Positions 39,306-40,341 are shown, counted from the first letter of the stretch. The stretch is DNA of 64,000 nucleotides from Minisyncoccia bacterium (GCA_038215155.1 JBBQRF010000001.1:142205-206204), one strand, 5' to 3'. Made by a program: numbers and translations. Notes: a model not told the origin generated them from the sequence alone.

Positions 39306-39321
39306 ATGCTTCCCTCGCCAG

Positions 39322-39394
39322 AGCCGGAGGCCAGAATTGAACTGGCGACCTCTGCTTTACGAAAGCATTGCTCTACCAACTGAGCTACTCCGGC
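39322..39394 (-). tRNA. tRNA-Thr(CGU)
   Basis: GCCGGAG-TA-GCTC-AGTTGGTA-GAGC-A-ATGCT-TTCGTAA-AGCAG-AGGTC-GCCAG-TTCAATT-CTGGC-CTCCGGC-T. Confidence 0.8.
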
Positions 39395-39442: not shown

Positions 39443-39708
39443 TGGAGCCGTTGTCCGGGATCGAACCGGAGACCTCTTCCTTCGTTTACACCTCTTTTTC
39501 AAATATATAAGAGGACTAGACTGTATCTTAATCCTTCTAAAGAAGGATTCCTTTGTCAGTCGTTCGAGCGTTTCAAAAAGATACGCTACGGTCTTAACCT
39601 AGGATTTAGGCCTTTAACCGTTATTGAGGATACACCCAAAGAATTACTTCTTTGAGGGGCAAATGTCGCTTTACCATGGAAGTGCTCTACCAGCTGAGCT
39701 ACAACGGC
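39443..39708 (-). tRNA. tRNA-Thr(GGU) interrupted by a 190-nt intron in the anticodon loop (CCA encoded)
   Basis: 5' exon GCCGTTG-TA-GCTC-AGCTGGTA-GAGC-A-CTTCC-ATGGT (39673-39708). 3' exon AA-GGAAG-AGGTC-TCCGG-TTCGATC-CCGGA-CAACGGC-T-CCA (39443-39482). Exon halves pair perfectly in the acceptor and anticodon stems. Confidence 0.7.
39483..39672 (-). ncRNA. group I-like self-splicing intron (190 nt) inserted after U36 of tRNA-Thr(GGU)
   Basis: 5' exon ends in U and the intron ends in G (omega G). Candidate P7 strands GACUGAC/CAGUC with an S-like UAAGAUACAGUCUAGUCC element. Hairpins consistent with P2, P5, P6, P8 (AAUCCUUCU-UUAG-AAGGAUU) and P9. Confidence 0.5.
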
Positions 39709-39735
39709 ATACTTTATATATGCTCGGTAATAATA

Positions 39736-40341
39736 TTATAAAGTTTGTAGATTTTCAATTGATTTATATAAAATATCGCGCAATTTTTTGTTATTGTAAT
39801 AGACAGTAACCACACCGTATTTCGATTTATTTTTATAGGTACCTGGATTTTTTGAAGGAGTAATTATTGTTTTATAAAACTTGTTTTTATCTACCTTTAG
39901 TTTCGGAAGCCAGTAATTAAATACTTCTTCCTCCGACAAATCATTAAAGATTTGCAATCCAAATCTTAATTTGTCTTGATCGATATTGTAAATAATTTTT
40001 AGAAAATCAATAAATTTTATAATCAGAGCAGGATCCGAATTTCCTAGTCGAATTGAATACTGGTTGCGTTTATTTCCTTCTCCCCAATAAAGTCCCACTC
40101 CTATTCCATACAGAAAGAACTCTGATATTTTAAAATTTTCTCTAATTTTAAAAGGGTGACCATTTGGGTTCCATTTTATATAACTGGCGTCAGAAATTGA
40201 TCTTTTTTTAATATTATATTTTTTTATCCAATAATTAACTTTGTTTTCCGAGCATCTCAATATTTGGCCGATTTCAGCACTAGATTTTCTCTTTTTATTA
40301 TAGAGATCTATTAAGGTCTCTTTGGATATTGTTTGCATCAT
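39736..40341 (-). CDS. HTH plus LAGLIDADG-like (homing-endonuclease-like) domain protein
   Basis: N-terminal HTH (SSAEIGQILRCSENKVNYWIKKYNI); motif FLYGIGVGLYWGEGNK followed by QYSIRLGNSDPALIIKFIDFLKIIY, resembling a LAGLIDGEG helix-strand core. Its stop lies 28 nt from the 5' end of the intron-containing tRNA. Confidence 0.35.
   Translation of the reverse strand: MMQTISKETLIDLYNKKRKSSAEIGQILRCSENKVNYWIKKYNIKKRSISDASYIKWNPNGHPFKIRENFKISEFFLYGIGVGLYWGEGNKRNQYSIRLGNSDPALIIKFIDFLKIIYNIDQDKLRFGLQIFNDLSEEEVFNYWLPKLKVDKNKFYKTIITPSKNPGTYKNKSKYGVVTVYYNNKKLRDILYKSIENLQTL

Follow-up and report, generated by a model that had tools for sequence, protein, structure and literature searches.

An unclassified two-domain protein encoded beside an intron-split tRNA-Thr(GGU) gene in a Minisyncoccia bacterium: a possible free-standing homing endonuclease

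Introduction

When an open reading frame (ORF) for a 201-amino-acid (aa) protein stops just short of a tRNA gene interrupted by a group I intron, the question arises what the protein does and what binds its gene to the intron. Such a locus lies in a stretch of 64,000 nucleotides (nt) from a Minisyncoccia bacterium (GCA_038215155.1 JBBQRF010000001.1:142205-206204), the whole of which is termed the window here and supplies all coordinates given without a locus number. The initial annotation had read the ORF as a helix-turn-helix (HTH) protein with a LAGLIDADG-like segment, acting either as a free-standing homing or maturase-like endonuclease of the intron or as a domesticated transcription factor. 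From comparison with other loci (L-numbers) and proteins (P-numbers), we read the ORF as encoding a site-specific DNA endonuclease of the free-standing homing type, or a protein recently descended from such an enzyme, which would carry an unclassified catalytic domain and be paired with the ORF-less intron as in collaborative homing, a reading given a probability of roughly 0.5. The comparative context favours a free-standing homing element tied to the intron, while assignment to the LAGLIDADG family fell away and the maturase and transcription-factor options are possible and less favoured.

The ORF and the split tRNA gene

The gene and its parts are laid out as follows.

39736..40341, minus strand: the 201-aa ORF with its HTH and unclassified C-terminal domain, ATG start, stop codon included (ORF call, homologs)
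40168..40341, minus strand: N-terminal HTH module, aa 1-58 (Pfam below cut-off, AlphaFold, PHROG, BFVD)
39739..40158, minus strand: C-terminal domain, aa 62-201, candidate catalytic domain (AlphaFold, predicted local distance difference test score, pLDDT, 88-89)
40069..40107, minus strand: motif GIGVGLYWGEGNK, aa 79-91, with invariant G79, G81, G83, W86, G87, E88, G89 and K91 (alignment of 40 sequences)

The ORF is present where it had been placed, with the peptide segments quoted in the initial annotation found exactly at aa 75-116, and on comparative sequence grounds it is a real gene, because it has more than 800 homologs at E<=1e-3 (top non-identical match, E 1e-71) and because the ratio of nonsynonymous to synonymous substitution rates (dN/dS) between diverged copies, whose dS is saturated, is 0.08-0.16. 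The best 120 homologs are about 200 aa long and 50-61% identical to it, are nearly all unnamed or "hypothetical", and derive from metagenomes and from metagenome-assembled genomes of Patescibacteria, also known as the Candidate Phyla Radiation (CPR); their precomputed Pfam domains comprise nothing besides occasional HTH matches and one DUF3606. When 1.84 billion cluster representatives were searched with the family profile, 7,736 matched at E<=1e-3, many through the HTH module alone, and the window ORF scores 315 bits against the family hidden Markov model. The family is large and uncharacterised, and spans CPR bacteria and big phages. Within the 64-kb window a search for further members found none besides this ORF. 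Full-text literature yielded nothing on the protein family or its association with tRNA genes in a coverage that leaves out most subscription journals, so that an earlier description is possible.

On the same strand the ORF is followed by a tRNA-Thr(GGU) gene in three pieces.

39673..39708, minus strand: 5' exon of tRNA-Thr(GGU), tRNA positions 1-36, ending at U36 (...CCAUGGU) (sequence reading, homolog alignment)
39483..39672, minus strand: 190-nt ORF-less group I intron with P1-P9, P7 GACUG/CAGUC and terminal G (Rfam, covariation)
39443..39482, minus strand: 3' exon of tRNA-Thr(GGU) (39446-39482) with encoded CCA (sequence reading, homolog alignment)

The close spacing of ORF and tRNA held as first described; the exact distance is 27 nt and not 28, the stop codon ending at 39736 and the tRNA beginning at 39708. 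The intron scores 28.6 bits (E 2e-5) against Rfam Intron_gpI, which lies below the gathering score of 50, and at its 5' splice site U36 pairs as a U.G wobble with the internal guide UUUGCC. Alignment of 60 tRNA-plus-intron homologs with RNAalifold recovered the split cloverleaf together with P1, P2, P4, P5, P6, P7, P8 and P9, with compensatory changes in 38 of 60 pairs, an essentially invariant P1 U.G and an invariant P7 GACUG/CAGUC. The insertion after U36 is, as far as covariation and conserved sequence can tell, a real group I intron, and bears out the group I-like intron that had been proposed.

A DNA pattern built from two conserved core segments of the intron retrieved at least 120 metagenome loci, and of the 132 matches listed (120 metagenome loci plus the window and earlier loci), 118 have the insertion in a tRNA with anticodon GGT. 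With lengths estimated at 169-254 nt, the introns contain no ORF. Group I introns in some CPR tRNAs have been remarked upon in passing (PMC8172020). ARAGORN and Rfam at its gathering threshold both miss the tRNA-Thr(GGU) and report downstream of the ORF only tRNA-Thr(CGU), and such genomes therefore seem to be without an essential tRNA.

Linkage and decay across loci

Fetching by protein similarity gave 11 distinct intact close homologs (the window, L001, L002, L006, L009, L011, L012 and L140-L143), and in all 11 an intron-bearing tRNA-Thr(GGU) gene comes directly after the ORF, within 0-130 nt. Over 41 intact copies, stop codon and tRNA are a median of 16 nt apart. In 14 of these 41 the ORF terminates within the tRNA gene, and 9 of the 14 take their stop codon from the conserved U8-A9-G10 of the tRNA itself (e.g. 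L009:3597-3606). If ORF and tRNA were co-transcribed, processing by RNase P would strip the stop codon from the message at the overlapping loci.

The only intronless tRNA-Thr(GGU) among the loci examined is that of L005, where the ORF copy has at least two frameshifts; in L004 the copy is interrupted by two in-frame stops and lacks the HTH. Among the 120 intron-seeded metagenome loci listed, 99 were informative, and they divide into 30 with an intact adjacent ORF, 16 with a broken copy and 53 with no adjacent ORF. The broken copies are truncated, internally deleted or interrupted, typically with a C-terminal remnant abutting the tRNA, and L051, classed as ORF-less, retains the last ~10 codons. 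The ORF is thus found intact, decayed and absent at one fixed, conserved site.

Genes of two other nuclease-like kinds take up this position at some loci where the family ORF is absent. In L035 a 139-aa ORF with an HNH motif lies on the opposite strand and ends 33 nt upstream of the intron-bearing tRNA-Thr(GGU); in L023 and L056 a 286-aa ORF, zinc-ribbon plus PD-(D/E)xK-like and with a weak Phage_endo_I match, lies 340-485 nt upstream of it.

The same counts bear on whether the protein could be a splicing or tRNA-maturation cofactor, binding the 190-nt intron or the precursor tRNA and promoting its folding, splicing or processing. LAGLIDADG maturases promote the splicing of organellar group I introns, and a comparable role would suit the presence of an intron-bearing tRNA beside every intact close homolog, the small size of the intron with its few peripheral elements, the shared orientation and occasional overlap of ORF and tRNA, the strong purifying selection, and a conservation like that of PrfB. 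Against it, an adjacent ORF is missing from 53 of the 99 listed intron loci and dead in 16 more, though a trans-acting copy elsewhere in the genome is still possible. The intron is as long without the ORF as with it (193 versus 194 nt, p=0.31); since it persists without the ORF at about half of the loci and at equal length, splicing does not generally need the ORF. Paralogs abut intronless tRNAs, and the HTH is of a DNA-binding type common to HNH endonucleases. A cofactor role is considered distinctly unlikely. The stricter notion of an obligatory maturase was disfavoured in view of the 53 ORF-less intron loci and the equal intron lengths.

Relatives beside other tRNA genes

Paralogs at 24-42% identity end 3-25 nt before, or inside, other tRNA genes, namely tRNA-Thr(UGU) (L033, L077), tRNA-Tyr (L043, L081), tRNA-Trp (L050) and tRNA-Met (L110). 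A Tyr-type paralog (L109:139-759) ends 8 nt upstream of a tRNA-Tyr(GUA) gene (L109:767-1036) in which a different group I intron (~801-989; Rfam 45 bits, E 4e-10) follows U35, and the same type precedes intronless tRNA-Tyr in L081 and L043. More distant relatives lie within the tRNA clusters of viral contigs of 55-446 kb, where the L135 ORF ends exactly at the start of a tRNA-Val. On the evidence of these placements, the wider family is a tRNA-flank family.

Domain architecture

For the N-terminal module, Pfam gives weak HTH_28/HTH_23 matches at aa 8-44 of the ORF, under cut-off; HTH_23 matches 31 of 40 aligned family members, and AlphaFold predicts helices at 7-16, 21-27, 32-41 and 49-57, all of which sustains the HTH first proposed. 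PHROG 7545 and 8446, both labelled "HNH endonuclease", match aa 1-53 at E 4e-5, and PHROG families of that label match divergent members at E 2e-10 and 6e-9. The HNH endonucleases retrieved from BFVD match structurally in the HTH module only, over 50-70 residues and at 27-31% identity. Sequence comparison thus indicates that the DNA-binding module is common to this family and phage HNH homing endonucleases, and its homology to the PHROG module agrees with the way homing endonucleases typically shuffle modules.

The module is also found rearranged in the wider family. P0130 (701 aa), P0133, P0144 and many others carry 5-14 tandem copies of the ~58-aa HTH unit. Some members, namely P0124 (aa 1-78), P0100, P0116 and P0118 (N-termini) and L137:2228-2905, are lengthened at the N-terminus by a basic or zinc-ribbon-like stretch, C..C....(Y/F)CS..C, which either adds to the HTH or replaces it.

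To the invariant residues of the motif listed above, the 40-member alignment adds, among others, L84 within it and N101, Q130, D134, Y169 and R188 beyond it, and the conserved segments of the C-terminal domain run GLYWGEGNK ... RLGN(S/T)DP ... FGLQIFxD ... GTYK ... YGV. Paralogs and phage relatives keep the motif as (L/I)YWGEG(N/T/A)K, the paralogs with NSDP as well. E88, invariant in 40 of 40 sequences, sits within GLYWGEG at the end of helix 72-88, an acidic residue placed as in the LAGLIDADG motif helix; in some divergent members the motif Glu is lost (SKG in P0245, AGG in P0263). AlphaFold modelled the full-length protein at pLDDT 89 and the domain alone at pLDDT 88 with a predicted template modelling score of 0.83, and both models give the order alpha(72-88)-beta-alpha-beta-alpha-beta-beta-alpha in place of the alpha-beta-beta-alpha-beta-beta-alpha expected of the LAGLIDADG fold. 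The predicted beta-alpha-beta pattern implies a mainly parallel sheet and not an antiparallel saddle.

The LAGLIDADG assignment was put to six kinds of test and rejected, having failed in Pfam, NCBIfam, phmmer and profile searches of PDB, hhalign, and Foldseek against PDB with the full and domain-only models. Pfam LAGLIDADG_1/2/3 gave no match at E<=10 for the ORF, 40 family members or 10 distant members, and Pfam LAGLIDADG gave none at E<=1 in the phage relatives; the test works, since a neighbouring gene in L012 matches LAGLIDADG_3 at E 5e-6. By hhalign, the alignment of the C-terminal domain against the I-CreI family alignment reached a probability of 0.5% with the motif unaligned, and 0.2% against the genuine LAGLIDADG_3 protein of L012. 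Foldseek found nothing in PDB at E<=1e-3 and no LAGLIDADG structure at E<0.2; the best match of the domain-only model has a TM score of 0.39 (OmpA-like YfiB), and LAGLIDADG enzymes are absent from its top 50 PDB matches. The L012 protein just named (L012:2261-2707, plus strand, 148 aa) is encoded ~300 nt upstream of the family ORF of that locus and shows no relationship to the family in the hhalign comparison.

A genuine but extremely divergent single-motif LAGLIDADG endonuclease was considered nonetheless, on account of the resemblances that had led to the first reading. By eye, GLYWGEG aligns with (V/I)DGDG, with E88 at the catalytic position and a small-residue helix (GxGxG) before it, and N101, which closes the following strand, would presumably correspond to Gln47 of I-CreI. 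The best structural matches in BFVD are phage proteins annotated as LAGLIDADG or "endonuclease", at marginal E values of 1.2e-3 to 1.4e-2 and high root-mean-square deviation (the top one a "LAGLIDADG DNA endonuclease family" protein at E 1.2e-3, the second LAGLIDADG match at E 1.4e-2), and the intein endonuclease domain of PDB 7qss is a marginal match with probability 0.94 but E 0.21. The negative profile, profile-profile and PDB fold results, together with a predicted order beta-alpha-beta-alpha-beta-beta whose sheet would be largely parallel, make such an identity very unlikely. The likeness to I-CreI and LAGLIDADG_1/2/3 is confined to a short Gly-rich helix that terminates in G-(D/E)-G and includes an invariant acidic residue, and to the marginal matches with phage proteins so annotated, whereas sequence-profile, profile-profile and PDB fold tests all fail and the order of secondary structure differs. 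On the predicted models, the C-terminal domain has an unclassified fold that is not a recognisable LAGLIDADG fold, and no unrelated family claims it either; the refutation named in the initial annotation, which asked for placement in an unrelated family as well as absence of the LAGLIDADG fold, is thus borne out only by half. Membership of an anti-phage defence system was discarded as well, the ORF having no meaningful PADLOC match.

Proposed mechanism and known systems

Several features together make up the signature of a free-standing homing endonuclease: an insertion flush with a conserved gene, the intact, decaying and absent states, the HTH as in HNH enzymes, the occurrence of relatives in the tRNA clusters of phages, the presence of other nuclease genes at this position, and intact copies that are always accompanied by an ORF-less intron while the sole intronless allele goes with a dead copy.

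In the mechanism proposed, the HTH module would bind DNA as it does in phage HNH homing endonucleases, and the 140-aa C-terminal domain carries the invariant Glu of GLYWGEGNK together with the invariant Asn, Gln, Asp, Tyr and Arg. The protein would cut intronless tRNA-Thr(GGU) genes at a presumed target in or near the anticodon stem-loop, which as DNA forms an inverted repeat of the kind that a dimeric enzyme could well recognise. Repair from the donor would then copy the ORF-less intron, whose insertion point is 36 nt inside the tRNA, and in many cases the neighbouring ORF too. As the intron splits the target, the carrier genome would be protected, and after fixation in a lineage the ORF would be free to decay, leaving remnants beside the tRNA.

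Collaborative, or trans, homing is documented for F-CphI with the psbA intron of cyanophage S-PM2 and for T4 mobE with the nrdB intron (nrdB-I-TevIII), and in both, as here, a free-standing endonuclease-like gene adjoins a conserved gene with a group I intron whose own ORF is missing or defunct (PMC3984707, PMC2790892, PMC6083498). Further likenesses are that the intact ORF co-occurs with the intron and that the intron would interrupt the presumed target. The present case differs from these pairs in its bacterial (CPR) chromosome, its tRNA target, a putative catalytic domain that is unclassified and neither HNH nor Endo VII-like, the paralogs of the family beside intronless tRNAs, and a cleavage at the insertion site that is so far presumed.

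Two other kinds of system invite comparison. I-Ssp6803I is a PD-(D/E)xK homing endonuclease encoded inside a cyanobacterial tRNA-fMet group I intron; unlike that enzyme with its restriction-enzyme fold, the present protein is encoded 5' of the tRNA and not within the intron, and its predicted fold is another. T4 SegB and the T5 F-Tfl enzymes are free-standing homing endonucleases of phage tRNA gene regions, of the GIY-YIG or HNH type. They resemble this family, with its relatives in viral tRNA clusters, as small modular genes between or before tRNA genes, whereas the family has only an HTH module in common with HNH enzymes.

Surroundings of the tRNA genes

Two further features of the region were listed.

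39321..39394, minus strand: tRNA-Thr(CGU), the next gene in the cluster (ARAGORN, Rfam)
39730..39758, minus strand: strongest sigma-70-like promoter match in the region, TTGAAA and TATTAT spaced by 17 nt, 10 of 12 positions (consensus match only)

After tRNA-Thr(CGU) come prfB, ftsE and ftsX, an order identical in L012 and L140. The promoter-like match falls within the last ORF codons, ~22 nt upstream of the tRNA, and is not significant against shuffled sequences; comparison of promoter conservation upstream of the tRNA across the locus classes gave no clear signal in this AT-rich sequence, and the idea that ORF remnants persist as carriers of the tRNA promoter therefore stays a guess.

At the other end of the tRNA, a serine recombinase gene (HTH_38, Recombinase, Zn_ribbon_recom) lies directly downstream of the intron-bearing tRNA at L007:3905-5302 and L008:3905-5302, minus strand. 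It is found 3' of the tRNA in two of the three contigs with an identical family protein (L007 and L008, versus L006), which suggests that an element has integrated there.

Inheritance and alternative functions

A number of observations weigh against a homing endonuclease, and the first of them concern inheritance. In four genomes with the order ORF, tRNAs, prfB, ftsE, identity is 54-60% for the ORF and 56-73% for PrfB, with equal rank order, and dN/dS, low between diverged copies, is ~1.1 in one close pair (L062 and L104). In sequence terms this conservation looks like long vertical inheritance under purifying selection, a picture that suits a gene useful to the host no less than a selfish one. 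Among the loci compared, none gave a clean case of horizontal transfer, L051 and L125 being only suggestive: between L051:3716-3960 and L125 (oriented 742-984) the intron is 97% identical and the exons are identical while the flanks are at background similarity, and the intron of the syntenic relative L088 is only 90% identical in the comparison. The pattern is suggestive of lateral exchange of a tRNA-intron cassette, and is not decisive because the relationship of the two genomes is not established.

The remaining points on that side concern specificity and catalysis. The linkage in 11 of 11 homologs may overstate specificity, as it is set against no base rate for introns in CPR tRNA-Thr(GGU) genes. 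Intact paralogs adjoin intronless tRNA-Thr(UGU), Tyr, Trp and Met genes, and therefore the intron cannot be a general self-protection. Sequence and profile searches found no match for the C-terminal domain in Pfam, NCBIfam, PHROG, PADLOC or PDB, and no recognised nuclease domain was found in the ORF among GIY-YIG, HNH, LAGLIDADG, PD-(D/E)xK, EDxHD, His-Cys box and Endo VII-like types.

It is at this point that a non-catalytic, sequence-specific DNA-binding protein has to be weighed, domesticated or never catalytic, for example a regulator of a tRNA operon whose promoter overlaps the 3' end of the ORF. Such a protein would accord with the HTH as the only recognisable module and the absence of a detected nuclease fold, with the best promoter-like site for the tRNA lying in the last ORF codons, with the seemingly vertical conservation and with the loss of the motif Glu in P0245 and P0263. 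The distribution is patchy, however, and decay at the fixed locus is frequent; the invariant acidic/polar set E88, K91, N101, Q130, D134, Y169 and R188 lies outside the HTH and is more typical of an active site; and relatives occur in phage tRNA clusters, where ORFs between tRNA genes are typically homing endonucleases (T4 segB, T5 tRNA-region endonucleases). We consider a purely DNA-binding function unlikely, and retain the free-standing homing endonuclease as the preferred interpretation.

Conclusions

A bolder extension, which we regard as tentative and rather doubtful, is that the 140-aa C-terminal domain represents a new catalytic fold of homing endonuclease and defines a large family specialised on the tRNA genes of CPR bacteria and their phages; the family would then give natural snapshots of a proposed pathway in which a free-standing endonuclease and an ORF-less intron first converge on a common target and later fuse to form a mobile intron.

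Overall, the practical consequence is that standard annotation would report a genome like this one as being without tRNA-Thr(GGU), while the neighbouring gene stays "hypothetical". If the protein is a true endonuclease, an unrecognised modular nuclease family of ~200 aa would join the short list of homing-endonuclease types, and the locus would provide a chromosomal bacterial case of collaborative homing, so far documented in phages only, in which natural genomes display each stage, intact, decaying and lost. It would also help to explain why group I introns, mentioned in passing for CPR bacteria (PMC8172020), are common in their tRNA genes.
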